From a bacterium (GTDB lineage Bacteria > Patescibacteriota > Minisyncoccia > UBA6257 > 02-FULL-45-10c): DNA of 64,000 nt. Of the stretch, positions 11,904-48,735 are shown in pieces (the stretch's first letter is position 1; each line of letters opens with the position of its first letter). The stretch is taken from assembly GCA_021786945.1 (NCBI GenBank), contig JAJYMK010000003.1, positions 329,366 to 393,365 of the forward strand, given 5' to 3'. The notes beneath the pieces were generated by a model. It ran no database searches and was not told where the DNA came from. It saw nothing but the letters and a program-made list of their open reading frames with translations. The translations under genes were made by a program, and so were the position numbers.

Positions 11904-13148
11904 TCAGTTTTTAAGACAACGAACAGGAAATCCCCATGCCCCGCTGTATGAGTACCGAGCTACCGTTGTATAAATAGAAGCCAAAAGCCGCGCCCATGCG
12001 CCACTTCCTCCAGCATCCGAAGACCAAAAGTATGTGTAAGCGTCACGATTACCAAATGACCCAGTAACGCCTCTATAACCAGTTAAAGTACTGTTAAATC
12101 CAGATATTCCGCCAGATTTTAATTTTGTTCCAGCGGCACTACAATCCCAAGTTCCATTCCTAGAAACATTGCAAGTCTGACCCGCATCGGTAAGATATTG
12201 GTCTAGTATATTTTGTTCGGCATCTGTAGGAACGTGCCATCCCACGGGACAGACACCTTGAGCTCCAGCTATTGTTGAACCATGCATAGCGGCCGACCAT
12301 TGATAAACGAAGCCAAATTTATTAGAAATAATGTTAGCAAGTGTTTCTTCGGCGCTATTAGTGGCATTTGGAGGATAAGAATAATAACCATGGTCTAGGC
12401 CATCCCAAGTTGCAGTAACAGGACCTCTGGTTATAGCTGTTCCATCAGGATATTTAGTGGTTCTAATATTCTCAGTCATCCAACATTGTGTGCCAATTAA
12501 AACAGTTGAATAAGAATTATTATCAGCGTCAGTAATTAAGTCTCCACAAGTCAAGCCTGGCAAAATAGCCGAATCTAGGCTCAAATCATTTCCAGTCTCA
12601 AATCTTGTAGAACTTCGTCCTCCATCAGCAACGGCATTCGATGCAAGATATTTGTCGGATTCAAGAGTAGCAGAAAGAGCCCAAGAACCAGGGATATAGG
12701 TGTAGTAGAGACCATTAGCTACGGTATTGACTGGATCAATAGGGAGATTGGAGAAAAGAGTTCCGGCTGAGGATTGAACTGAAGATAGATTGACTGGTAT
12801 CCAACCTGTACCGTCTATATTTCTGTAGTTTCCTGAGGTAGAACAGTGATAGCTACCACTACTGAGAGCTGGGAGACCAAGATCAGAACAATTGGCTTGA
12901 GCGCTTGGTATAGATACATAGACATCACCATGGGTACCCATATTGGTGCTACCTCCAAAGGATTGATACAAGAGAAGAGCTTGGTTTATAGATGTTATCT
13001 CCGTGATTCTATTGGCATCTCTGCTCTGCTTTACCATCTGAGCCGGGTTTATGACCAGGAGAACTGTTGTGGCCAGGACTGCTAATATACCTATGACTAT
13101 CAATAGTTCTATGAGGGTGAAGGCTTTTTGGAATTCAAAACGATTCAT
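11904..13148 (-). CDS. type IV pilin-like protein with C-terminal Fibrobacter-succinogenes-type (FISUMP) domain
   Basis: Prepilin N-terminus QKAFTLIELLIVIGILAV. The C-terminal region has GTQCWMTENIR…, CPVGWHVPTDAEQ…, YFWSSDAGG… and GFPVRCLKN blocks typical of the TIGR02145 paralogous domain. Confidence 0.6.
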   Translation of the reverse strand: MNRFEFQKAFTLIELLIVIGILAVLATTVLLVINPAQMVKQSRDANRITEITSINQALLLYQSFGGSTNMGTHGDVYVSIPSAQANCSDLGLPALSSGSYHCSTSGNYRNIDGTGWIPVNLSSVQSSAGTLFSNLPIDPVNTVANGLYYTYIPGSWALSATLESDKYLASNAVADGGRSSTRFETGNDLSLDSAILPGLTCGDLITDADNNSYSTVLIGTQCWMTENIRTTKYPDGTAITRGPVTATWDGLDHGYYSYPPNATNSAEETLANIISNKFGFVYQWSAAMHGSTIAGAQGVCPVGWHVPTDAEQNILDQYLTDAGQTCNVSRNGTWDCSAAGTKLKSGGISGFNSTLTGYRGVTGSFGNRDAYTYFWSSDAGGSGAWARLLASIYTTVARYSYSGAWGFPVRCLKN

Positions 13149-14374: not shown

Positions 14375-15706
14375 TTAATCCTTCTTTTCGTCTTTTCCGT
14401 CTTCCTCTTCCTTTTCAAAAACAATTTTGGATTTCTCATTGAGTACGACGTAAATTATGTCTTTCTCTTTGATGAATCCCTTGTTCTTGAGCCGGCAAAG
14501 GGGCTTGCGAAGATATTTGTAAACCTTATTCTTCACGAGCCGTGCGCCATTTTCAGGCTTATCGGTAGCTTCGTTGAGGATGAATTCCTTAACCCTCTCG
14601 TCAAAGACGAGGGTAACCGGAAAACTCTTCAGGACTTTTTCCTGGAATTTGCGCAGTTCCACGTCAACAATCTTGCGCAATATATCCGGACCAAGGGGTC
14701 TGTAAACGCTTATTCTGTCGAGCCGCGCCAGAAATTCCGGCGGGAAAGCTTTCTTAAGCTCTTCGAGGGACTGCTTGTATATTTCTTTATCCAAGACAGA
14801 CTCCTCTTTTTTCTCTATCTTCTGAACGAACCCAAGCTTACCTTTCGGATTCAGTATTTCGGCGATCTGGCGGGAACCGACGTTAGTCGTCATGAGAATA
14901 ACCGAATTGGAAAAATCGGTTATCATGCCGTTGGCCAACTGCAGCTGCGCCTTATCGATGATATTCAGAAGTATATTATGAAGAGCCGGATGGGCTTTTT
15001 CTATCTCATCAAAAAGAATGATGGATTTAGGCCGTTTAACTTCGGTAAATGCCTGCATAGCCGCAAGTCTGTTTACCTCAGACACAACCTTTTCGCGCTC
15101 AGCGAGTATCGGAAAAGCTTCTTTGAGTTTCTTGTTAAGAAGTGGCCATTTCTTTACGTCTACATTTCCCTTCTCGTCAAAAAACTCGGAAAACTCTACC
15201 ATCTGATCGGCTAAGTCATAATTCAACTGAATAAGCTCTTTGACTTTTTCGTTGAATTCTTCTTTCGCCTTGATCATTTTAGGATCCGTGTCTTTTGCGA
15301 ACTTATCGATGCTCCCCTGAAACAGAATGGGAGCAGTGCCCGAATCCCGCGGATCTTTCGGATTCCAGTGGCCAACATAGCCAGCCGGAGAACCGATGAG
15401 TTTGGAAATGCTATGGCTTTCCGAATACGCTTCACACGGAATTTTCGTGAAAGCATTCCTGTCACCAAACCAGTATTCAGCAAGTAATTCAGCCGTTAAG
15501 GTTTTACCGACACCGGAGGGTCCCGCGCACAAACCCACGTAAATAGGTTTGTTTTCCGTAAACATCTCCGACTCGAAAACCTCTATTGCATCGGCCAAAT
15601 CTTTCACTGCCTTATCCTGGCCTTTTATAACAGACAACATGAATTCTAAAAGCCGTAAAGCTTTTTCGCTTGGCTTTTCGCCATCCAACCTTATTCTGCG
15701 TTTCAT
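14375..15706 (-). CDS. standalone Clp/Hsp100 D2-type AAA+ ATPase with ~90-aa insert between Walker A and B
   Basis: ClpB-D2-like entry VIKGQDKAV…PIYVGLCAGPSGVGKT (Walker A). Walker B/sensor block IILFDEIEKAHPALHNILLNIIDKAQL. Sensor-2 EFLARLDRISVYRPLG. Strong SD (GGGGGTGA). GC is elevated (~45%). Confidence 0.7.
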   Translation of the reverse strand: MKRRIRLDGEKPSEKALRLLEFMLSVIKGQDKAVKDLADAIEVFESEMFTENKPIYVGLCAGPSGVGKTLTAELLAEYWFGDRNAFTKIPCEAYSESHSISKLIGSPAGYVGHWNPKDPRDSGTAPILFQGSIDKFAKDTDPKMIKAKEEFNEKVKELIQLNYDLADQMVEFSEFFDEKGNVDVKKWPLLNKKLKEAFPILAEREKVVSEVNRLAAMQAFTEVKRPKSIILFDEIEKAHPALHNILLNIIDKAQLQLANGMITDFSNSVILMTTNVGSRQIAEILNPKGKLGFVQKIEKKEESVLDKEIYKQSLEELKKAFPPEFLARLDRISVYRPLGPDILRKIVDVELRKFQEKVLKSFPVTLVFDERVKEFILNEATDKPENGARLVKNKVYKYLRKPLCRLKNKGFIKEKDIIYVVLNEKSKIVFEKEEEDGKDEKKD

Positions 15707-15835: not shown

Positions 15836-17104
15836 TTATTTGACATCGCCAGGCTTCTCCTCTTCACACTGCTTGGAAAAAACCACGTCTTTGCCATCGA
15901 GGTCGACACAGACTATATCCGCTTCTTTTATTTCTTTCCGGTTCCTGAGCCGCGCCATTTCCCGCCTTATGTACTTATCGAACTTGGCAAGAAGCGTCGA
16001 GGCTCCGAATTCCAGACGGTCCAAAGATTCGTTAACGATGAAATTCTTAACTTCATCGCTTATCCTGAGCGAAATAGGAAATGAAGCGTTAACCAGTTCC
16101 GTATAGAACTTATTAAGCTCCAGATCGAAAATCTCGTTCAGAGAATCTTTGAACAGCGGACGGAAAACAGATATCCTGTCAAACGAAGACAGGAAATCAA
16201 GACTTATATTTTCGACCGCAAACTGCATTGAAGATTTATAAATCTTCTTTGCGTCCGAAAGCCGATCATATATAGCCTTGTCCATTTTCTCGATCTGTTC
16301 TTTGCTAGGAGGTTCGAAACCCAGCCTTCCCTTTTTCAGTCCCCTCACCTCTTCCATTATCACATCCGAACTGATGGTGGACGTAACAATAACTATAGAA
16401 TTGGTAAGATCGACTTCTTCGCCGTTTTCGAATCGCACGTATCCGTCTCTCAGCACTCTCTGGATAATACTGAGCATGCCGGGACAAGAACGTTCGAAAT
16501 CACTGAAGACGACGATGGAAAGACTGTTCTGGGGTTTGTAACTGTTGAGCTTCTCCTCAAGAACATTGATTGCATCAACGAGATTAATGCAATGCTTCGT
16601 GGTATCGCCAAGCTTCTGCCGCAGCTCATCTGAGCCGACAGCCGAGTCATTGGCGGTATTACAAAGCCTGAAAAGTTCAGCCTGTTTTTTCTCCAGTATC
16701 TCCTGTAGCTTTTTCTGGCCATTGAATATCCGGCAGTAATCCTTGTTCCTCAGTAAAAGAGGAAGATCGATTTCCGCTCTGGACAACATAGCCGGAACAG
16801 CCGCTACGGTTTCCATATTGAAAGCTCCGCAAGGAATTTCGGAATAATACTTGCTGTTTCCGAAAAATATTTCCGCCAAGCTTTCGACGAAAAGCCGTTT
16901 TCCGACATTTGGCAACCCCAGAAATAATCCCTTATAAATAGGGCTATTTCTGCGCCTCAGTCCGGAAGTCAGGCCTTCAAAGCATTTCACGAAGTTTCCG
17001 ATAACCGGATCCTGACCCTTAATCCTTTCTTTTAACATCGCAAAGAGATTAGAGGCCTTGTCGCTTTTTTCTCCCCGGGAAAGACGTATCATTTTGCGTT
17101 TCAT
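15836..17104 (-). CDS. paralogous Clp-D2-like AAA+ protein with degenerate Walker A/B (predicted pseudo-ATPase)
   Basis: Same architecture as the neighbour (IKGQDPVI…GLFLGLPNVGKRL; SEIPCGAF; FLSSFDRISVFRPL). The residue after the P-loop Lys is R instead of S/T. Walker B reads VVFSDFERSCP rather than hhhhDE. Strong SD AAGGGAGGGG. Confidence 0.65.
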   Translation of the reverse strand: MKRKMIRLSRGEKSDKASNLFAMLKERIKGQDPVIGNFVKCFEGLTSGLRRRNSPIYKGLFLGLPNVGKRLFVESLAEIFFGNSKYYSEIPCGAFNMETVAAVPAMLSRAEIDLPLLLRNKDYCRIFNGQKKLQEILEKKQAELFRLCNTANDSAVGSDELRQKLGDTTKHCINLVDAINVLEEKLNSYKPQNSLSIVVFSDFERSCPGMLSIIQRVLRDGYVRFENGEEVDLTNSIVIVTSTISSDVIMEEVRGLKKGRLGFEPPSKEQIEKMDKAIYDRLSDAKKIYKSSMQFAVENISLDFLSSFDRISVFRPLFKDSLNEIFDLELNKFYTELVNASFPISLRISDEVKNFIVNESLDRLEFGASTLLAKFDKYIRREMARLRNRKEIKEADIVCVDLDGKDVVFSKQCEEEKPGDVK

Positions 17105-17224: not shown

Positions 17225-17953
17225 TTAATCTTTAATTAAAGGCACGAAGCTGAAACCAAAATATTCTTTTTTATCGAAAAAATCTTTAGCTTTTTTCTCC
17301 ACTACCACAATACTATTTTTAACCGGAGCAATAATTTTTCCACCAATTTTTAATTGCTCAAACCAAAAAGCCGGAATTTCATCACTAGCCGCTGCGGCAA
17401 TAATTTTATCGTATGGTTCAAATTCTTTACAACCCAATGATCCATCTCCAATAATTAATTTTACTATTCCCTGCTTCTCAAATCCATACTTAGACATATT
17501 TTCTCTAGCGAATTTCTGAAGCTCTTCAATCCTCTCCACTGAAATAACTGAATAAGAAATTGAGGTCAGGGTACCTTGGGCGATAATTTCTTTCTGAGTT
17601 TTGTCTTCACTCCCAACAAACTCAGCTCTTTGCTCTATCTCTTTTTTCATATGGGTTAAAATATACGCCATCAGAGCAGTTTTCCAACCAGAACCGGTAC
17701 CAATCTCTAAAACTCGCTCTCCGATTTTTAAATCCAAAAGCTCCAGCATAAAAGCCACGACAAGCGGCTGGGAAATCGTCTGTTCAAAACCGATAGATAG
17801 AGCTTCGTTGGAATAAGCATTGTTTTTTTTCTGTTCCGGCACAAAATCCTTTCTGTCTATATTTTTAAAAGCCTCTATGATTACCGGATTTTTTAAATAA
17901 CCATCCTTTTTTAAAAGCTCTATAAGTTCTTCGTTTGTGTTTAAGACTGCCAT
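17225..17953 (-). CDS. pcm: protein-L-isoaspartate O-methyltransferase
   Basis: TISQPLVVAFMLELL…RVLEIGTGSGWKTALMA is the PIMT SAM-binding signature. GC is native-like (low). Confidence 0.85.
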   Translation of the reverse strand: MAVLNTNEELIELLKKDGYLKNPVIIEAFKNIDRKDFVPEQKKNNAYSNEALSIGFEQTISQPLVVAFMLELLDLKIGERVLEIGTGSGWKTALMAYILTHMKKEIEQRAEFVGSEDKTQKEIIAQGTLTSISYSVISVERIEELQKFARENMSKYGFEKQGIVKLIIGDGSLGCKEFEPYDKIIAAAASDEIPAFWFEQLKIGGKIIAPVKNSIVVVEKKAKDFFDKKEYFGFSFVPLIKD

Positions 17954-17971
17954 AAATATATTATAACAAAA

Positions 17972-18006
17972 GAAAAAGCCCCGATCCTTACGAATCGGGG
18001 CTTATT
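17972..18006 (-). terminator. terminator hairpin GCCCCGATCCTTACGAATCGGGGC after the 721-aa gene
   Basis: A GC hairpin plus T-run on the minus strand; it may act in both directions. Confidence 0.6.
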
Positions 18007-18014
18007 TTCAGGCC

Positions 18015-20180
18015 CTAGAACTTGGCCTGGTCTTTCTTGGATTTCAGATACATGGGATAGTAGTCGCGATACTCGGACGCTATCCTCGTGATCTTCTTCC
18101 CTTCCTTGTCCGTGAACACCTCATTGATGAACATGCCCAGTGACGGCAGCATGGCGTGAGTTTCCAGGAATTCATCCGGGCCTTTAAGGCACGGAACGAG
18201 GATTCCCACGCGCTCATCGTAGAGCATGAACGAGGAGTGGAAGTGGCCGAGATAAGCTATTGCCGGTAAGCCGCCGCTCTCACCGCTTTCGCGGATAAGC
18301 TTCAGGTGTTTTTCAACCTGCGGCGACAGCGAATAGCCCAGCCCGCCCTCGGGGTGTATCAGTTTGTGGTAGATCCCATCCACCACAACCGACCCGAACA
18401 TCGAACCCAGATACCGCAGAAGACCCGACAGCCTGATCGACAGGGTCCTCACGATAAGATGGCCGATGGATTTCCAAGCCCAAGCATCGTGATTGCCTTC
18501 GATGATGTCGGTCTGGAGCCAAACTTCTTTCTGGCTCTTTTCCGTCCTGGTGACGTAGCTTATAGTGCCATCGTCGTTGTTGATCATTTCCGAGACCAGG
18601 ATAGGCTTCTTAGGGTCTACTTTGATCTTCACTTTAGGCCAGTTAGCCACCGCGTGGTTTTCCATGCCGTCGAGATCAGAGAACTTAACGTCGAAGTTAT
18701 GTCCCCTGTAACCCGCCGCAGCAGGGCCATCGGTAACGTCACCGGGATGATACATGCGCCGCACGCCGGCGTCAGCAGCATCCTGATAGGCCTTCTTGAA
18801 GATGTCGGGCAGTTCTTTCTTGCTGCCGCTGTGATTATCCGAAACAGAGGCTTCCTTGGTTGCGAAGACGTAAACGTCCTCGTACTTCAAAGGAAGCGGC
18901 GCAAACTTCCGCTTAACCGACACTTCGAGTTCGTAACGCTTGGTGTCAGGCTTGAACGGAATTTTGATGCCGCAGTTAGACAGCCTCTTGATAATCCCGG
19001 CGACTCCTTCCTTACCCATCTTCAGCCTGCGCGAAAGATCGCCGGCCGATATGATATGCTCCTTCACGAACCAGCCCAGGACCTGCTTCGAAACATCATC
19101 CAGGTTGGCAGCGCGGGACACATTTATGTCGTAGACATCGTTGGTAATGGTGTAGTGATCCAGAGCGTTAAGGTAAACCTTAAGGCCCACAGACGGATCA
19201 AACATCCAGTTATCCCCGAAGCTAAGCTCGGCGATCGTGTAACCCACACGGGGTTCCACGCCGCGGCGTCCCTGACGCATCATTCTCTTGTGAAGGCTCG
19301 GCACGGTCTCTATGAACATGCCGTTGTACTTGGGTAAGCGAGCTCGGCGGTGCAGACCGCCAAAGACCAGAAGCATCGGCTTCGGATCATCTTTCAAGGC
19401 GTTCGCGATTTTCTGCGGCCCATAGCTTACAGCTTTCGGGCTATTGTCGTCCCACGGGGACATCGCTTTGATGCGGACACCTTTTATGTCGAAAGACTTC
19501 TCCAGTTCGCCGGCTTTGCGGAGGTCTTCGCGCTTGTTGCAGATAGCCGACACTATGTCGATGCCGTCTTTTGCCCTCCAGGAAAGTTCTCCCTTACCGC
19601 TTACGATGTAGGTTTTGAACTTTTTGCTCCTGGGGAAACAGTCAACGACGTAGTCGGCCAGCTCCTGCGCGTCACCGAAGAGCGCATCCGATTCGGTCGT
19701 AGCGGTAGGCTTGCTCATTACTAAGCCGCCAACCACCACAACGAAGTCGATATCTTCTTTTACGAAGACGACCTCGTAAAGCCAGTGCAGAAGACTTATC
19801 TGCGCCTGCTTTGACCCCATACGGATCTCAGAGAGGAAAGCAACCTTAAACTTCTTGTTGCTTATCGATATAGGAATCGCCTCTTCACTTTCATCGCCCT
19901 CAACGGCAGTGCTGAGAAACAGCTTTCTGTCCTTGGTGACGTGAATGTTGTAGCCCTTGTCGTTGAGTTTCTCCGCGACGTCCAGCAGATCCTGGATGCT
20001 CGTATTTAAGGCTTTCGCCAGAGCATCTTCGGACTTGTCGGACTTCTTGGTCTTCAACAGAACCAGGAGCCTGAGCTCTTTCTCTTCTTGAGAGAGAGAG
20101 GGGTGCGCTTTTTCGTTGCTCATTTCGGACTTACCGGAGGGCAAGTCCGATTTTTTTTGCTTCTTGCCCTTCTTTTCCAT
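18015..20180 (-). CDS. large (721 aa) protein: degenerate N-terminal phosphoesterase-like region plus intact C-terminal calcineurin-like metallophosphoesterase domain
   Basis: C-terminal half carries SDNHSG (motif I-like), HPGDVTDG (GDxxDG), IEGNHDAWAW (GNHD) and YLGHFHSSF (GHxH). N-terminal half has VAFLSEIRMGS and FVVVVGGLV in the equivalent positions, which look degenerate. Start is set at MEKKGKKQ, which has the SD GGGGGTAG. GC is ~50%, against ~35% background. Confidence 0.55.
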   Translation of the reverse strand: MEKKGKKQKKSDLPSGKSEMSNEKAHPSLSQEEKELRLLVLLKTKKSDKSEDALAKALNTSIQDLLDVAEKLNDKGYNIHVTKDRKLFLSTAVEGDESEEAIPISISNKKFKVAFLSEIRMGSKQAQISLLHWLYEVVFVKEDIDFVVVVGGLVMSKPTATTESDALFGDAQELADYVVDCFPRSKKFKTYIVSGKGELSWRAKDGIDIVSAICNKREDLRKAGELEKSFDIKGVRIKAMSPWDDNSPKAVSYGPQKIANALKDDPKPMLLVFGGLHRRARLPKYNGMFIETVPSLHKRMMRQGRRGVEPRVGYTIAELSFGDNWMFDPSVGLKVYLNALDHYTITNDVYDINVSRAANLDDVSKQVLGWFVKEHIISAGDLSRRLKMGKEGVAGIIKRLSNCGIKIPFKPDTKRYELEVSVKRKFAPLPLKYEDVYVFATKEASVSDNHSGSKKELPDIFKKAYQDAADAGVRRMYHPGDVTDGPAAAGYRGHNFDVKFSDLDGMENHAVANWPKVKIKVDPKKPILVSEMINNDDGTISYVTRTEKSQKEVWLQTDIIEGNHDAWAWKSIGHLIVRTLSIRLSGLLRYLGSMFGSVVVDGIYHKLIHPEGGLGYSLSPQVEKHLKLIRESGESGGLPAIAYLGHFHSSFMLYDERVGILVPCLKGPDEFLETHAMLPSLGMFINEVFTDKEGKKITRIASEYRDYYPMYLKSKKDQAKF

Positions 20181-20487
20181 AATACTACCCCCTTTTAAAT
20201 CCAAGATTTTAGAACCTATACTGCTAATAGCTTCCAAACGCGATACGGGTAAATTTTATACAGAACAAGGAGCGAGGAGGAAATTTATAGTTTTAACTAT
20301 ATTTCCGACAAGCGATGCATGTTATATATACAAATTTACAGTATCCCGAAGGGTTGTGGTCTAAATAATGTGTTTAGGAATTATTAGCAGGATAGGTTCT
20401 TTTTTTAAAGAACTACTTATAATTTAAGTATAAGACCCAGCCGAAATATAATGCAATAGGGCAAAAGTTTTTTTGAATAAAAAATAA

Positions 20488-20536: not shown

Positions 20537-20607
20537 GGGGGTATCGGTTAATGGCAAACCAGCGGTCTCCAAAACCGCGACTGGGGGTTCAAGTCCCTCT
20601 GCCCCCG
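20537..20607 (+). tRNA. tRNA-Trp(CCA)
   Basis: GGGGGTATCGGTTAATGGCAAACCAGCGGTCTCCAAAACCGCGACTGGGGGTTCAAGTCCCTCTGCCCCCG folds as a cloverleaf. Anticodon loop is CTCCAAA. Confidence 0.8.
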
Positions 20608-21427: not shown

Positions 21428-21499
21428 AGCCGATGGTGAGAATTGAACTCACGACCTACTCCTTACCATGGAGTTGCTCTACCTCTGAGCTACATCGGC
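21428..21499 (-). tRNA. tRNA-Thr(GGT)
   Basis: The reverse complement GCCGATGTAGCTCAGAGGTAGAGCAACTCCATGGTAAGGAGTAGGTCGTGAGTTCAATTCTCACCATCGGCT folds as a cloverleaf. Anticodon loop is ATGGTAA. Confidence 0.8.
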
Positions 21500-21543
21500 A
21501 TAAATAATATTTTAATAATACAGCCGTAATTTTCAATCGGCTG

Positions 21544-21615
21544 AGCCACTTCCCAGATTTGAACTGGGGACCTTCTCTTTACAAAAGAGTTGCTCTACCG
21601 CTGAGCTAAAGTGGC
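21544..21615 (-). tRNA. tRNA-Thr(TGT)
   Basis: The reverse complement GCCACTTTAGCTCAGCGGTAGAGCAACTCTTTTGTAAAGAGAAGGTCCCCAGTTCAAATCTGGGAAGTGGCT folds as a cloverleaf. Anticodon loop is TTTGTAA and the variable loop is short (type I). Confidence 0.7.
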
Positions 21616-21660
21616 TTATATTTTAAACTACTTTTATACAATACACCTTAATACGGTGTG

Positions 21661-21744
21661 TGGGCAGGGAGGGATTCGAACCCCCGTAGCCACAAGGGCG
21701 CCTGATCTACAGTCAGGTGCAATTGACCGCTCTGCCACCTGCCC
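21661..21744 (-). tRNA. tRNA-Tyr(GTA)
   Basis: 84 nt with a long variable arm. The reverse complement reads GGGCAGGTGGCAGAGCGGTCAATTGCACCTGACTGTAGATCAGG…. Anticodon loop is CTGTAGA. Confidence 0.8.
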
Positions 21745-44990: not shown

Positions 44991-45704
44991 ATGAAAAAGA
45001 TATGGGTGGCTGTACTGACGTTTGTACTCCCCCTGATCTTCACCCTCAGGGTGAACGCTCAGGCGGTTTCGGATAACCCTTCGAAGGCAGAGATCCACAA
45101 GCTCTTCGATACGGTACCCCTCGAAAAGATGGATAAGCACGGGGTGCCGGTAAAGGAGCCGAGATTCAGCGCTTCAATAGGTATCGGACCTGGTTACCAT
45201 ATCGGGTTTGAAAATGTGGGACGAATAAAGGCTTATGATAACGCCTTTTCCTTCTCCACCCGCCTCGGATACTCCCCCCTGAAATATTTAGAAATTCAGG
45301 GTGAATATTCCAAGACGGGCATCTTCAAAAGACACAGGCCCGAATACAAACAGACGATCTCTTTCACCTTCTATACCTTTACGGTTAACTTGAAGGCTGG
45401 TATCCCGGTAGAGGTAAAAGGGCATAAATTTTACCCCTATCTAGTCGGCGGATACGGAAGAGCCGTGCTTTACTACGAAAATGTGGATACGATGAGCGGA
45501 GTGGTAAGCTGGGTTCCTAAAAAGTATTACACCAATTATTGCTCGAAAATAGGATTTGGGATTGAGACGCAAATCTCGGATCAAATATTCCTATTTTCTG
45601 AAGTGAATAATTGGAAAATGCTAAAATGGAATCCTTACTACAGCGTCGATCGTTTGGACATAACTTATTCACAAGCACTGGTCGGAGCAACACTGAAGTT
45701 CTAA
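44991..45704 (+). CDS. outer-membrane beta-barrel-like protein (porin-family fold)
   Basis: Signal peptide MKKIWVAVLTFVLPLIFTLRVNA. Alternating amphipathic strands and a C-terminal …GATLKF aromatic terminus. The gene is ~50% GC. Confidence 0.55.
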   Translation: MKKIWVAVLTFVLPLIFTLRVNAQAVSDNPSKAEIHKLFDTVPLEKMDKHGVPVKEPRFSASIGIGPGYHIGFENVGRIKAYDNAFSFSTRLGYSPLKYLEIQGEYSKTGIFKRHRPEYKQTISFTFYTFTVNLKAGIPVEVKGHKFYPYLVGGYGRAVLYYENVDTMSGVVSWVPKKYYTNYCSKIGFGIETQISDQIFLFSEVNNWKMLKWNPYYSVDRLDITYSQALVGATLKF

Positions 45705-45745: not shown

Positions 45746-47299
45746 CTATTGATACGCTTTCTCGCAATTACCCAAATTATTACATACATATCCAGACGAA
45801 CAAGTTCCACAAGAAATAGTTCCACCGCAGCCGTTGTCTACACCACCGCAGGTCCTAGAAATACAAGCGGTTGTAGTAGCTGTCGGAGTACAACTACTAG
45901 AATCAACACAAGCTCCGTTTGTACAAACTTGGCCGGAAGAACAAACTAATTCCGGCATTACCAACCTTGTAACACCGCAGTTGCTTACCTGGGAAATCTG
46001 CGAAGTTCCGCAAATAGTTTTAACATCGGGAGTATAAGAAGACGAAGTGCAAGTAAAACTCGGGATTCCGGAAGGAACAACGGGAATACTATTTGCATCA
46101 TTTAAAATCTGAACTGATAGCTTTGCTATATCACTATCGCTTGTAAATCCGAGAGTTTTTAAGAAGCTGCTTATATCGCATTGACCACCAATAAACTTAC
46201 TATTCTGATAATCAAACGAAGAAAGGCTGAAACAATCAAATGTATTACCCTTGGCAGTTACCTGCACCATAGCACCGGTATATAGGTTCTCTCCGGCTAC
46301 GGAAGCTACGTTAAACTTACCGTCACTTAAATCATTTTTGCTAATAACAACAGATGGACTTACGGGTTCCGGTAAAGTTATTTTAAAACAATCTTTACAC
46401 TCGCTCATTTTTCCGTCTGGATTCTGGATTCTTACGCTCCAAGCTCCAGTAGGCGCATCGGTAATATTACAAACGCCACCAGTAAGAGTTCTAGAATCCG
46501 GTACAGTAAAACCAGTACAATCAACACTTTTACCATCGTTTACCAAAGAAACTTTCGTATCCTTTGAAAATCCAGCGCCAGTGAGAGTCATCGCGTTAGT
46601 TAAATATTGAACGTTGGTTGGAGCCGAAACCACATCGCCATCGCTGCAACCAGCAGCATTACAAGCCACAACTTTATAATAAAAAGGTTTAGTTGGATCC
46701 TGAATTCTGTTTTCCAAGAAAAATCTTTGCCCATTATTCATCTCGGTAGTGGTTATAACGGTAGATAAGGAAGACGCACTCGTTCCTCGATAAATTTTAT
46801 AAGAGACACTCGAGGCTCCACCTAAAGAAGAAGGGGCGTCCCAATAAACTCTGAATCCGTGGTTAATATAAGTTCCGTCTTCATATTTATTAGAAACTTG
46901 AACGTTTAAAGGTTTTGACGGGATAGTTTGAATGGTTGAGGGGCCCGTTGGATTTATACCGGATCCCGTTTCTAGACAAACCGTACCAAACGAACCCAAA
47001 CAAGTACCCGCAGAAACAAGACCGGTAAATTGTTCCGCGATTTGATTTACCGGGCAAGAAAGGCCAAAAGTAACGCCGCATTGACCTACGCCGGAAACAA
47101 TATTAACCACATTGCCAACCATTTGAGCCACCGGTGCCACAACGGCATTATAAACAGTATTCACTACAGGTATGCTATTTATTATATTTTCTCCAATTGA
47201 AACAACTGTGCCAATAACAGGCGTGCCCTTTGCTTGAGCGGCGGGTACCACCAAAATTGAACCGACCAGAACTAATGATAATAATATTTTTTTATACAT
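45746..47299 (-). CDS. large secreted protein with Fn3-like module and Cys-rich C-terminus
   Basis: A signal peptide. Fn3-like block YKIYRGTSASSLS…YYKVVACNAAGCS. C-terminal CxxC-rich region. Confidence 0.45.
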   Translation of the reverse strand: MYKKILLSLVLVGSILVVPAAQAKGTPVIGTVVSIGENIINSIPVVNTVYNAVVAPVAQMVGNVVNIVSGVGQCGVTFGLSCPVNQIAEQFTGLVSAGTCLGSFGTVCLETGSGINPTGPSTIQTIPSKPLNVQVSNKYEDGTYINHGFRVYWDAPSSLGGASSVSYKIYRGTSASSLSTVITTTEMNNGQRFFLENRIQDPTKPFYYKVVACNAAGCSDGDVVSAPTNVQYLTNAMTLTGAGFSKDTKVSLVNDGKSVDCTGFTVPDSRTLTGGVCNITDAPTGAWSVRIQNPDGKMSECKDCFKITLPEPVSPSVVISKNDLSDGKFNVASVAGENLYTGAMVQVTAKGNTFDCFSLSSFDYQNSKFIGGQCDISSFLKTLGFTSDSDIAKLSVQILNDANSIPVVPSGIPSFTCTSSSYTPDVKTICGTSQISQVSNCGVTRLVMPELVCSSGQVCTNGACVDSSSCTPTATTTACISRTCGGVDNGCGGTISCGTCSSGYVCNNLGNCEKAYQ

Positions 47300-47346: not shown

Positions 47347-48735
47347 TTATTTATAACCGACGGGTGGATAGATCCCATCAAGACGAATAGGAATAACTCC
47401 TATTTGACAACTGCCATTAACACAAGAGTAGCCGGGCTGACTACAGCCCTGGCATAAACCGCCACATTGCCCACAAGTATCGCCATTCGCATCGGGTACA
47501 CATCCAGTGCAAGTTTCGCAGCTCTTTGTAGTTGTATTGCAATAAGCATTATCTCCCGTGCAAACCACACAGGCCACGCCGCAATTATCGGTATCTACGC
47601 AAGTTTTGCCATCACAAATATTGGGCGGGTTTACAACACAAATATTATTACATGCGCCTAAACAATCAGAAGCTGTATATTCCCCCGCTGCAGCCGGAAT
47701 GCAGGTATTGGCATTACATGTGTAGTGCGGGATTCCGCTGCAAGAACTATTACAATTAGAGTCTGTAAAAGAACCATTTGGGTCGGCAATGCACAAAGAA
47801 CCGTTGCAGGAATAATGCGGAGTACCGCTACAAATTCCGCCACAATCAGAAGCGGCAAGGGAGCCGCCTTTATAAGAAATACAAAGTGATCCATCGCAGG
47901 CATATTGAGCAATTCCGCTTCCGCAAAGCCCGCCGCAACCGTCCGAACATGTTTGCCCCGAAGGTAAATTGGTTGCGCAAAAACAATTCGGTATACAATT
48001 ATTTAAATCTTCATTAAAAACAGGTATTTCTGTCTCTTGAATAGTATTATCTTGTTTTGTTTCCCCTGTCTCTAAATTAATGGTAGCTATGCCGTTATTA
48101 AAATTTTCGCTGCTCACATAAACCCCGGGCTTGGAAGTAACTTGACCGGTCGTCGCAATTTTTAAAGTAACATATGAGGTGGGGGCAGACTCTGTATTTA
48201 TAACTATAATTCCGGCGGAAGAAGTGACATCGCATCCAATCTCACAAATAGATTTTCCTTGAAAATTAAATAATTTAGCTTTTGCATCGGACGAATAAAA
48301 AACAACATCTTTTATAAATTGAGAACTGGAAGTTATAGCTGTAACATTTAAAATTCTTAAACCGGAAGATAAATTATTTACACCTCCCTGACCCGCCAAA
48401 GGACTGTCTTTAACCAAATTAACACAATCTTTATAAGAATAAATTGTATAAGTATCCGGATTATTATTTATCCCCTGCTCAAAAGATACTCCGTATCCGC
48501 AAATACCCTTATCCGCACCGGCGCCCTGCAAAGTAAGGGCCTTAGCCCTGTTTATAGCACTAGCCACTCCGGCGATATCTGTATTTAGATTAAGTTGCGC
48601 CTGATTAACCTTATTATTTACAAGCAAAACGGCGGTTGTTACCGCCAAAACTCCAACTACCGCAATAGCTTCCACAAGAGTAAACCCCGCCTGCGCAGAT
48701 AGACCTCCTTGAAAATTTATATGTTTTTTGAACAT
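47347..48735 (-). CDS. pilin-like protein with long Cys-rich tandem-repeat C-terminal domain (candidate minor pilin/adhesin)
   Basis: AG|FTLVEAIAVVGVLAV prepilin N-terminus. C-terminal ~27-aa repeats such as PHYSCNGSLCIADPNGSFTDSNCNSSCSGI / PHYTCNANTCIPAAAGEYTASDCLGACNN. Confidence 0.55.
   Translation of the reverse strand: MFKKHINFQGGLSAQAGFTLVEAIAVVGVLAVTTAVLLVNNKVNQAQLNLNTDIAGVASAINRAKALTLQGAGADKGICGYGVSFEQGINNNPDTYTIYSYKDCVNLVKDSPLAGQGGVNNLSSGLRILNVTAITSSSQFIKDVVFYSSDAKAKLFNFQGKSICEIGCDVTSSAGIIVINTESAPTSYVTLKIATTGQVTSKPGVYVSSENFNNGIATINLETGETKQDNTIQETEIPVFNEDLNNCIPNCFCATNLPSGQTCSDGCGGLCGSGIAQYACDGSLCISYKGGSLAASDCGGICSGTPHYSCNGSLCIADPNGSFTDSNCNSSCSGIPHYTCNANTCIPAAAGEYTASDCLGACNNICVVNPPNICDGKTCVDTDNCGVACVVCTGDNAYCNTTTKSCETCTGCVPDANGDTCGQCGGLCQGCSQPGYSCVNGSCQIGVIPIRLDGIYPPVGYK

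Follow-up and report, generated by a model that had tools for sequence, protein, structure and literature searches.

Is a gene whose base composition sets it apart from its surroundings a recent foreign arrival or a working part of the cell, and if the latter, what does it do? The question is raised by one gene in a 64,000-nt stretch of a Patescibacteriota genome (contig JAJYMK010000003.1), which we refer to as the window. In the list of open reading frames (ORFs) this gene, here called the target, occupies window positions 18015-20180 on the minus strand and encodes 721 amino acids followed by a stop codon. Its product carries two copies of a unit made of a winged helix-turn-helix (wHTH) and a metallophosphoesterase (MPE) domain, the first MPE degenerate and the second intact. 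By sequence profile and predicted structure, the MPE domain of its family is closest to the phosphodiesterase (PDE) domain of DP1, the small subunit of archaeal DNA polymerase D (PolD); in the alignments the likeness takes in the loops by which DP1 selects single-stranded DNA (ssDNA). We propose, at a probability of about 0.4, that the target is a metal-dependent 3'-5' ssDNA exonuclease that works in replication or repair as a single-chain asymmetric pseudo-dimer.

A duplicated wHTH-metallophosphoesterase unit

The architecture of the target is (wHTH + degenerate MPE) followed by (wHTH + intact MPE). The first-pass annotation of the window had described an intact calcineurin-like phosphoesterase in the C-terminal half and an inactive duplicate of it in the N-terminal half. 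When residues 1-344 were aligned with residues 345-721 by hhalign, 290 columns were matched with a probability of 95.9% and an E value of 5e-9. The MPE duplication was thus borne out. Because the alignment spans the wHTH as well as the MPE, the duplicated unit is wHTH+MPE; both wHTH domains had been missed.

The two wHTH domains were recognised from weak HTH_11, BirA and MarR matches at residues ~32-95 and ~350-420 in profile searches of Pfam, NCBIfam and the PDB. The AlphaFold2 (AF2) model of the target has a mean predicted local distance difference test score (pLDDT) of 71 and a predicted template modelling score (pTM) of 0.72. It places three helices and a beta hairpin at both sites, and no match to an oligonucleotide/oligosaccharide-binding (OB) fold was found in the target. 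The extreme N-terminus (residues 1-27) is Lys-rich and charged, as had been described.

Compared with the Pfam Metallophos models (PF00149/PF12850), the target gave no match even at E up to 1 and did not reach the gathering threshold. Its ortholog P0011 and the single-module relatives do pass the Pfam thresholds. A profile built from 15 of these single-module relatives matched the N-module of the target with 176 bits and its C-module with 79+78 bits. Since the profile of threshold-passing relatives matches both halves (176 and 157 bits), the target belongs, transitively, to the calcineurin-like MPE superfamily. The model has the alpha-beta-beta-alpha sandwich of that superfamily, and the Foldseek comparison with the PDB that had been suggested as a check gave confident matches to MPE folds only. 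The C-module match is interrupted by a beta-rich insertion of ~35 residues, which is restricted to the C-module of the target's subfamily. The same profile found no second copy of the target in the window.

One intact and one degenerate active site

All motif strings quoted earlier for the C-terminal half are present. The five MPE motifs (DxH, GD, GNH[DE], H and GHxH) read D448-x-H450 (in SDNHSG), G480-D481 (in GDVTDG), G562-N563-H564-D565 (GNHD), H609 and G645-H646-x-H648 (GHFH). Six of these residues, H450, D481, N563, H564, H609 and H648, are invariant among 15 orthologs.

The motif correspondence of the two modules was fixed by alignment with active single-module relatives. The N-module positions are E118, R120, G152, K196, G197, S241, G275 and H277, so that seven of the eight motif positions (metal ligands and catalytic His) are replaced and one is kept. 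SEIRMGS in the N-module stands for SDNHSGS in the C-module at motif I, VGGLV for PGDVTDG at motif II, SGKGE for EGNHD at motif III, MSPWDDN for LIHPEGG at motif IV, and GGLHRR for GHFHSS at motif V. The earlier description of this half as a degenerate copy therefore stands.

DP1 is the closest characterised relative

The profile of single-module relatives was compared with PDB sequences. All six distinct DP1 sequences were matched at E values of 1e-12 to 5e-10, followed by MJ0936 at 3e-4 and Mre11 at 0.8. For nine of ten single-module relatives, the best NCBIfam match was PRK04036 (DNA polymerase II small subunit). The best score was 67 bits against equivalog cut-offs of 425-993, which is a likeness at the level of the domain and not of the full-length protein. 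In phmmer searches with individual relatives, DP1 was the only MPE at E <0.1, and MJ0936 was found at ~0.5. The first-pass annotation had likened the arrangement to DP1 and the B-subunits, and these searches agree in making DP1 the top MPE.

The aligned DP1 blocks are residues 356-453 and 548-595 (5ihe chain offset 144), which cover motifs I-III and V. They include loop L-H-L 1 (403-423) and most of loop L-H-L 2 (577-597). In DP1 these loops confer exonuclease selectivity: they limit the active site to ssDNA and stack on primer bases in the 2023 cryo-electron microscopy structures (PMC10721889). In the target, the L-H-L 1 equivalent reads GDVTDGPAAAGYRGHNFDV, in which G485, G490, Y491, G493, H494 and D497 are invariant among the 15 orthologs. 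The L-H-L 2 equivalent reads PCLKGPDEFLETHAMLP, with K666 and D669 invariant and F671 mostly conserved. Aromatic residues (Y491 and F671) therefore occupy loop-equivalent places, in loops whose pLDDT in the model is <50. The corresponding loop 2 of the dead module reads PSLHKRMMRQGRRGVEP and is rich in Arg and Lys.

From profiles and the predicted model, the family's MPE domain is closest to the DP1 PDE domain, and the family appears to be the closest relative of the PolD/B-subunit exonuclease module outside polymerases. The target is not a DP1 ortholog, lacking both the OB fold and the DP1 N-terminal domain.

The wider family

A word-indexed homolog search gave just 16 proteins, with 15 full-length homologs, which greatly understates the family. 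An exhaustive profile search gave 1,784 cluster representatives at E up to 1e-3, of which 918 were found at E up to 1e-10. Titles of metagenome-assembled genomes (MAGs) that contain members name Saccharibacteria, Spechtbacteria and "Patescibacteria group". Existing automated labels of some relatives, in source databases and in the viral structure library, read "DNA polymerase II small subunit", and other source labels read "biotin operon repressor/predicted phosphodiesterase". Automated pipelines have evidently caught the likeness. A literature search found no study of the family's DP1 likeness, and published accounts place homologs of DP1 and the B-subunits in archaea and eukaryotes. The family is large, uncharacterised and only automatically labelled, and the target is a new architecture within a known superfamily.

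We took a motif census of 164 family members, which also answers an earlier suggestion to examine metal-ligand conservation in homologs. Two-module proteins of 650-880 aa nearly all have a degenerate N-module, and their C-modules retain D-H-D-N-H-H-(H/N)-H or a minor variant. From one subfamily to the next the degenerate N-module residues differ, with ERG.. and DRN.. among the patterns. The full motif set is present in almost all single-module proteins (300-430 aa). The asymmetry of a dead N-copy and a live C-copy thus holds for nearly all of the tandem family. The loop 1 signature Y[RKP]G[HQ] was found in at least 82 of the 164 members.

In a subclade labelled Saccharibacteria (P0014, P0015, P0017-P0020) and in P0111, the motif I Asp is replaced by Cys (ACTH for SDxH) and motif V reads GNxH, while the C-module is otherwise intact. 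A Cys at the first metal-ligand position may reflect a different metal preference rather than inactivation.

At least five members (P0016, P0092, P0096, P0118 and P0264) contain inteins, some with LAGLIDADG domains. They occupy at least two positions adjoining catalytic motifs, one immediately behind GNHD (motif III) and one in the stretch that separates motif I from motif II. Inteins beside catalytic motifs are typical of replication and repair enzymes. No extra domains besides inteins were found in the long family members.

Genomic setting of tandem and single-module forms

The analysis of gene neighbourhoods covered the 64-kb window and flanks of at most 22 kb. Tandem members occupy core chromosomal positions beside ribosomal-protein or RNA-polymerase-subunit genes, in bacteria of the candidate phyla radiation (CPR) and on two archaeal contigs. 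In the clade of the window the order is S16-KH-TrmD-S2-EF-Ts ... target-PCMT-AAA+(1-2)-L10-L12-MraZ-MraW-PBP-Mur (PCMT, protein-L-isoaspartate O-methyltransferase; PBP, penicillin-binding protein). A distant CPR member has the order target-(small ORF)-PCMT-YceG-DJ-1-L10-L12, and at another CPR locus the target gene is directly 5' of L10-L12. In a Spechtbacteria MAG the tandem gene is 7 kb upstream of L10, and at locus L007 the order is S11-S4-RpoA-L17-L13-S9-target-ParA-ParB. On the archaeal contigs, the tandem gene lies beside Rpo11, a TFS-like Zn-ribbon protein, PcrB and glycerol-1-phosphate dehydrogenase (L021), or beside S13-S4-S11-Rpo3 ... L13-S9-RpoN (L023).

A fragment on a 1,277-nt contig binned as Nanoarchaeota (L009) is 50% identical to the CPR protein. 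Either the contig was assigned to the wrong bin, or the gene may have moved from CPR to DPANN.

Single-module members were mostly found on virus-like contigs of 35-48 kb with terminase, Rad52 and many small ORFs. On viral contig L019, the gene order is RNase HII, FEN 5'-3' exonuclease, the MPE gene, QueD, a DnaC-like loader, DnaB and a DnaG Zn-ribbon. The same virus also encodes a separate SbcCD pair, and because it carries both, the family is not redundant with SbcCD. Between 11329 and 15962 of this contig, PTPS/QueD, radical-SAM QueE and QueC are interleaved with DnaC/DnaB/DnaG, which suggests 7-deazaguanine modification of the viral DNA. A scan of IMG/VR found no tandem forms. When 50,697 phage genomes were searched by tblastn, the target gave no match, and the single-module relative P0149 matched Halorubrum virus BLv36 only.

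Composition and history of the gene

The target had been singled out earlier as the gene of highest GC in the window, with an estimate of ~50%. Its GC content is 52.8%, compared with 0.377 for the window as a fraction. By codon position (GC1/2/3) the values are 0.544/0.355/0.686, and the excess is almost all at third positions. Among the 46 ORFs of at least 150 aa, none has a higher GC3: the remaining 45 average 0.350, with a standard deviation of 0.065 (z = 5.2 for the target). The GC step falls at the ends of the ORF.

Codon usage in the target is a different dialect from that of the rest of the window and looks foreign. Frequencies in the target and in the rest of the window, respectively, are 0.45 and 0.10 for CTG, 0.39 and 0.05 for CGC, 0.06 and 0.52 for AGA, 0.81 and 0.21 for TTC, and 0.65 and 0.23 for AAG.

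Antisense ORFs of 343, 124 and 64-82 aa lie opposite the target. In the orthologs, the longest antisense stretch without a stop codon measures anything between 160 and 355 aa and follows GC, which marks these ORFs as by-products of composition; they had been taken for spurious earlier. They were rejected as real genes, their length following GC and not being conserved.

The raised GC3 is not peculiar to the window: the target gene was above the local mean in 10 of 10 loci examined. Extreme values were found in the window (z = 5.2), in L006 (z = 5.6) and in L015 (0.579, compared with 0.372 for the adjacent PCMT fragment). In the remaining loci the elevation is mild (z 0.2-2.2).

The gene tree of the target conflicts with its neighbours. 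L004 and L006 are mutually closest by PCMT, L10, L12, MraZ, MraW and PBP (81-99% identity), with AAA+ at 67%, whereas their target genes are only 50% identical and the L004 gene is 77% identical to that of the window. The identity matrix of the family is star-like, with five to six allele classes at ~50-55% identity. It follows from this conflict that the target gene was replaced in situ between sister genomes. The window allele would then have arrived by such a replacement from a GC-richer relative, or the locus recombines unusually often. Two causes would fit: alleles imported repeatedly from relatives richer in GC, or a hotspot of local recombination at which gene conversion favours GC. A foreign-dialect gene at a core locus that is swapped between sisters lends itself to the study of how CPR genomes undergo xenologous replacement or biased gene conversion.

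Near the target locus, relatives carry short GIY-YIG ORFs that stand alone (78-88 aa), together with a LAGLIDADG_3 ORF (L001, 6968-7207 and 4474-5301; L002, 9426-9662 and 2484-2750; L004, 1-28). If they encode nucleases of the homing type, they could promote gene conversion at the locus, which would go some way towards explaining both the allele replacement and the high GC3.

The first-pass annotation had read the gene as foreign high-GC DNA and had regarded a housekeeping ortholog in related genomes as evidence against its reading. The foreign codon usage and the in-situ replacement agree with the former; the locus, however, is a conserved syntenic core locus in many CPR genomes, which goes part of the way towards the latter. 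A simple recent foreign island was rejected on the conserved synteny.

Proposed function and alternatives

In our proposal, the two MPE modules contact each other within one chain and form an asymmetric pseudo-dimer, in place of the homodimer that the viral single-module relatives would be expected to form. Known MPE nucleases, Mre11 and SbcD among them, work as dimers. We infer the pseudo-dimer because Mre11/SbcD are dimeric and the pTM of the model suggests a defined domain arrangement. The pseudo-dimer would keep one two-metal active site, in the C-module, which probably hydrolyses DNA starting at a single-stranded 3' end. Positioning of the DNA, or docking of a partner protein, may fall to the dead module, with its Arg/Lys-rich loop, and to the two wHTH domains. 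The protein would serve DNA replication or repair, both in CPR bacteria with reduced genomes and in some archaea. By analogy, the replication-module context on L019, the inteins and the precedent of Bxb1 gp47 point to DNA metabolism.

Several observations weigh against this proposal. The family is known from sequences and predicted models alone. The link between the target and DP1 is transitive; it runs through the single-module relatives and one structure comparison on a medium-confidence model whose loops have low pLDDT. Searched on its own against Pfam, NCBIfam and PDB sequences, the target gave only weak wHTH matches and no MPE or DP1 match, and the 15-ortholog profile gave only MarR-type matches in the PDB and no DP1. 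Compared with DP1, the target has no OB fold or DP1 N-terminal domain; a wHTH precedes each MPE instead. No DP2 or polymerase partner was identified for the target, and in the window and flanks none of the family members had a polymerase gene as its neighbour. Nor is the setting in viruses always one of replication: in Halorubrum virus BLv36, the sole match among cultured viruses, the single-module gene lies between portal and capsid genes. Finally, the top Foldseek matches of the target model include the small-molecule phosphodiesterases SapH and MJ0936.

The last point leads to the first alternative, a phosphodiesterase of nucleotides or small molecules tied to transcriptional regulation. 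The wHTH domains would sit on operator DNA, the live MPE would act on a signalling or damaged nucleotide (a cyclic nucleotide or diadenosine tetraphosphate, Ap4A), and the dead module would serve as a sensor. SapH is an Ap4A hydrolase/phosphodiesterase, repressors that respond to ligands (BirA, NiaR and MarR) have wHTH domains like those of the target, and the biotin-repressor label on some relatives fits as well. The profile likeness to DP1, ssDNA-binding loops included, nevertheless exceeds that to MJ0936 by about eight orders of magnitude. Single-module relatives occur in viral genomes, one of them within a replication module, and the inteins favour an enzyme of DNA metabolism. A conserved ligand pocket in the N-module is made less likely by the residues of its degenerate site, which are not conserved over the tandem family at large. 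We consider this alternative unlikely.

A nuclease of genetic conflict, either an anti-phage effector or a domesticated viral gene, would explain the turnover of alleles by arms-race horizontal exchange. The in-situ replacement between L004 and L006, the star-like matrix of allele classes, the foreign codon usage with its extreme GC3 and the viral single-module relatives are all in keeping with it, and the neighbouring AAA+ gene matches the PADLOC candidates PDC-M37B and DolB. The target itself, however, had no match among PADLOC-DB defence profiles at E up to 0.01, and a terminator separates it from the AAA+ genes. Its locus is a stable core position among ribosomal-protein genes in distant CPR lineages and archaea, not a variable island, and the tandem form is missing from the IMG/VR scan. 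Aminoacyl-tRNA synthetases and other housekeeping genes likewise undergo xenologous replacement. A role in conflict is therefore also improbable.

We give a still lower probability to a role with RNA or RNA polymerase, such as the trimming of RNA 3' ends or transcripts by an enzyme that its wHTH domains recruit to the transcription machinery. Adjacency to polymerase subunit genes does recur: RpoA in L007, Rpo11 and the TFS-like Zn-ribbon in L021, and Rpo3 and RpoN in L023. In the clade of the window, the target is upstream of rplJ-rplL. DP2, the partner of DP1, has a double-psi beta-barrel core in common with RNA polymerases (PMC10721889, PMC7281927). However, the adjacency may reflect no more than the density of informational genes in small genomes, and the loops of DP1 bind DNA. 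To our knowledge, no MPE works with RNA polymerase.

That the target is a recently acquired gene from a high-GC donor with no role in its host is very improbable: GC3 (0.686 vs 0.35) and a codon usage wholly unlike the rest of the window would fit, but orthologs at the same locus in genomes diverged to 30-50% identity largely refute it, the reading frame is unbroken, its catalytic residues are invariant, both halves are strongly conserved, and raised GC recurs in several lineages.

Expression signals and neighbouring genes

The ATG at 20180 is preceded by a strong Shine-Dalgarno sequence, AAAGGGGG, and orthologs begin at the equivalent Met in the 15-ortholog alignment. An alternative, longer start at TTG 20237 is unlikely. 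An intrinsic terminator lies between the stop codon of the target and the PCMT start at 17953. Because it has its own Shine-Dalgarno sequence and a strong terminator, the target is predicted to be a self-contained, monocistronic transcription unit. Coordinates are collected in Table 1.

Table 1. Features of the target gene and its flanks in the window. Residue numbers refer to the 721-aa product.
Feature	Window position	Strand	Basis or remark
Complete CDS, tandem (wHTH + pseudo-MPE) + (wHTH + MPE)	18015..20180	-	ORF list, ortholog alignment, hhalign, AF2 model
Two sigma-70-like promoter candidates, 20409-20380 and 20325-20296, in AT-rich region	20296..20409	-	Promoter scan; consensus matches only
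Shine-Dalgarno AAAGGGGG	20186..20196	-	Few bases 5' of ATG 20180; sequence read directly
Residues 1-27, Lys-rich charged tail	20100..20180	-	Predicted disordered, pLDDT <50; poorly conserved, variable ortholog columns
Residues 28-95, first wHTH, HTH_11/BirA/MarR-like	19896..20099	-	
Residues 100-345, degenerate (pseudo) MPE module	19146..19883	-	Alignment with single-module relatives, motif census, 176-bit profile match
Residues 350-425, second wHTH	18906..19133	-	BirA-repressor match 378-418; AdcR/MarR match, profile positions 354-413; hhalign to first wHTH
Residues 430-715, intact MPE module (D448, H450, D481, N563, H564, H609, H646, H648)	18036..18893	-	
Residues 480-500 GDVTDGPAAAGYRGHNFDVKF, DP1 loop L-H-L 1 equivalent	18681..18743	-	Invariant columns, DP1 alignments, PMC10721889
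Residues ~519-554, beta-rich insertion of ~35 aa between motifs II and III	18519..18626	-	Alignment; model strands 518-560; profile match split there
Residues 661-682 VPCLKGPDEFLETHAMLPSLG, DP1 loop L-H-L 2 equivalent	18135..18200	-	Ortholog and DP1 alignment block 2; PMC10721889
Intrinsic terminator, 12-bp stem with 7 G-C pairs, then T run	17976..18003	-	Terminator scan

The neighbours of the target in the window are PCMT, the AAA+ genes and an FMN reductase. PCMT (17225-17953, minus strand) is directly 3' of the target despite the terminator between them. It adjoins the target, or is separated from it by one small ORF, also in L001, L002, L004, L015, L016 and L022, in CPR lineages as distant as P0024. 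It gave a generic methyltransferase match to PADLOC "mad2".

Two tandem paralogous AAA+ genes follow at 14375-15706 and 15836-17104, both on the minus strand, with AAA_2 and ClpB_D2-small domains and products of 443 and 422 aa. Their GC3 is raised (0.51 for both, vs ~0.35 in the window). The Walker A motif of the second is degenerate (GLPNVGKR), and the first matches PDC-M37B with an E value of 5e-26. Relatives have one or two copies. A look for co-localisation with AAA+ genes elsewhere had been advised; a functional link between the target and these genes was not supported. An operon of the target with PCMT and the AAA+ genes was rejected: the strong terminator lies between them, and the AAA+ genes are absent at L005/L008, L007, L010 and L022.

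Rfam found no match inside the target and, elsewhere in the window, tRNAs only, 15 genes in total. One tRNA gene (20537-20607), on the plus strand and so opposite to the target, lies 357 nt upstream of the target start codon; three more are clustered 1.2 kb from the target (21428-21744, minus strand). Genes for tRNAs are frequent landmarks of recombination and integration.

Further away, a pilin-like protein with an N-terminal methylation motif and a Fib_succ_major domain is encoded at 11904-13148 (minus strand). A 237-aa ORF at 44991-45704 (plus strand) has the second-highest GC3 of the window (0.542). The adjacent ORFs 45746-47299 and 47347-48735 (both minus strand) have an unusually high GC2 (0.49), which suggests surface proteins rich in Gly, Ala, Thr and Ser.

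Comparison with known systems

Proteins of the YfcE/MJ0936/Vps29 type (Pfam Metallophos_2) are single-domain enzymes of ~160-190 aa that act on small substrates and lack the extended loops shared with DP1; the profile E value is 3e-4. Mre11/SbcD differ more in profile (E 0.8): the target stops soon after its MPE, so that a capping domain is lacking, and it has no Rad50/SbcC gene beside it. A lead to the haloarchaeal Rpe phosphoesterase was uninformative.

Among phage MPEs, the nearest functional precedent is gp47 of mycobacteriophage Bxb1, which acts in replication and as a recombination directionality factor; its catalytic residues are intact, and its predicted fold is nearest Mre11/DP1 (PMC11795197). 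It is needed for phage DNA replication, has weak 3'-5' exonuclease activity and is encoded near replication genes (PMC11795197), in parallel with the viral single-module relatives. However, there is no detectable sequence relation: tblastn with the target and a single-module relative found no mycobacteriophage among the 50,697 genomes. No additional domain is described for gp47 (PMC11795197), whereas each MPE of the family is preceded by a wHTH.

PolD DP1, whose Mre11-like PDE domain is a 3'-5' proofreading exonuclease (COG1311; PDB 5ihe, 6knb, 6t8h and 8ppt), has the same ligand set as the family (D, H, D, N, H, H, H) and the same catalytic His of GNH[DE]. Its loop 1 reads GDVVDGIGIYPGQ, where the family reads GDxxDG..Y[RKP]G[HQ], and its loop 2 reads QAQTEFQK, where the target reads PC.K..DEF. 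In contrast to DP1, the target is a tandem with a dead first copy, and its family is found in CPR bacteria and viruses, not in archaea alone. In the eukaryotic B-subunits of Pol alpha, delta and epsilon and in inactivated archaeal DP1-like proteins, a dead DP1-type MPE is kept as a structural module (PMC7544198), as the N-module of the target appears to be. B-subunits differ in being separate OB-fold proteins that bind the polymerase C-terminal domain; the dead module of the target is fused in cis to a live one. The tandem form is a clean natural example of a fused live/dead enzyme pair.

In the literature, the DP1-type PDE exonuclease belongs to archaeal PolD only, and eukaryotic B-subunits hold inactive copies of it (PMC10721889, PMC7544198); where PolD obtained this subunit is a standing question (PMC7281927). 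A large family whose loops carry DP1-specific signatures makes a concrete candidate for the broader clade that DP1 was drawn from. A bolder and rather doubtful version of our proposal is that the family is a free-standing sister group, or possibly the source, of the PolD DP1/B-subunit exonuclease module, persisting independently of PolD in viruses, CPR bacteria and some archaea. The tandem protein would then be a trans-acting, ssDNA-specific 3'-5' exonuclease for editing or end processing that docks on the replisome or on the related double-psi beta-barrel RNA polymerase, beside whose subunit genes it is repeatedly encoded. If so, the fused dead copy would recapitulate in cis the inactivation of the eukaryotic B-subunits, and the DP1-type nuclease would no longer be exclusive to archaeal PolD. 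The family offers a candidate new nuclease that can be tested in organisms whose replication and repair toolkits are poorly known.

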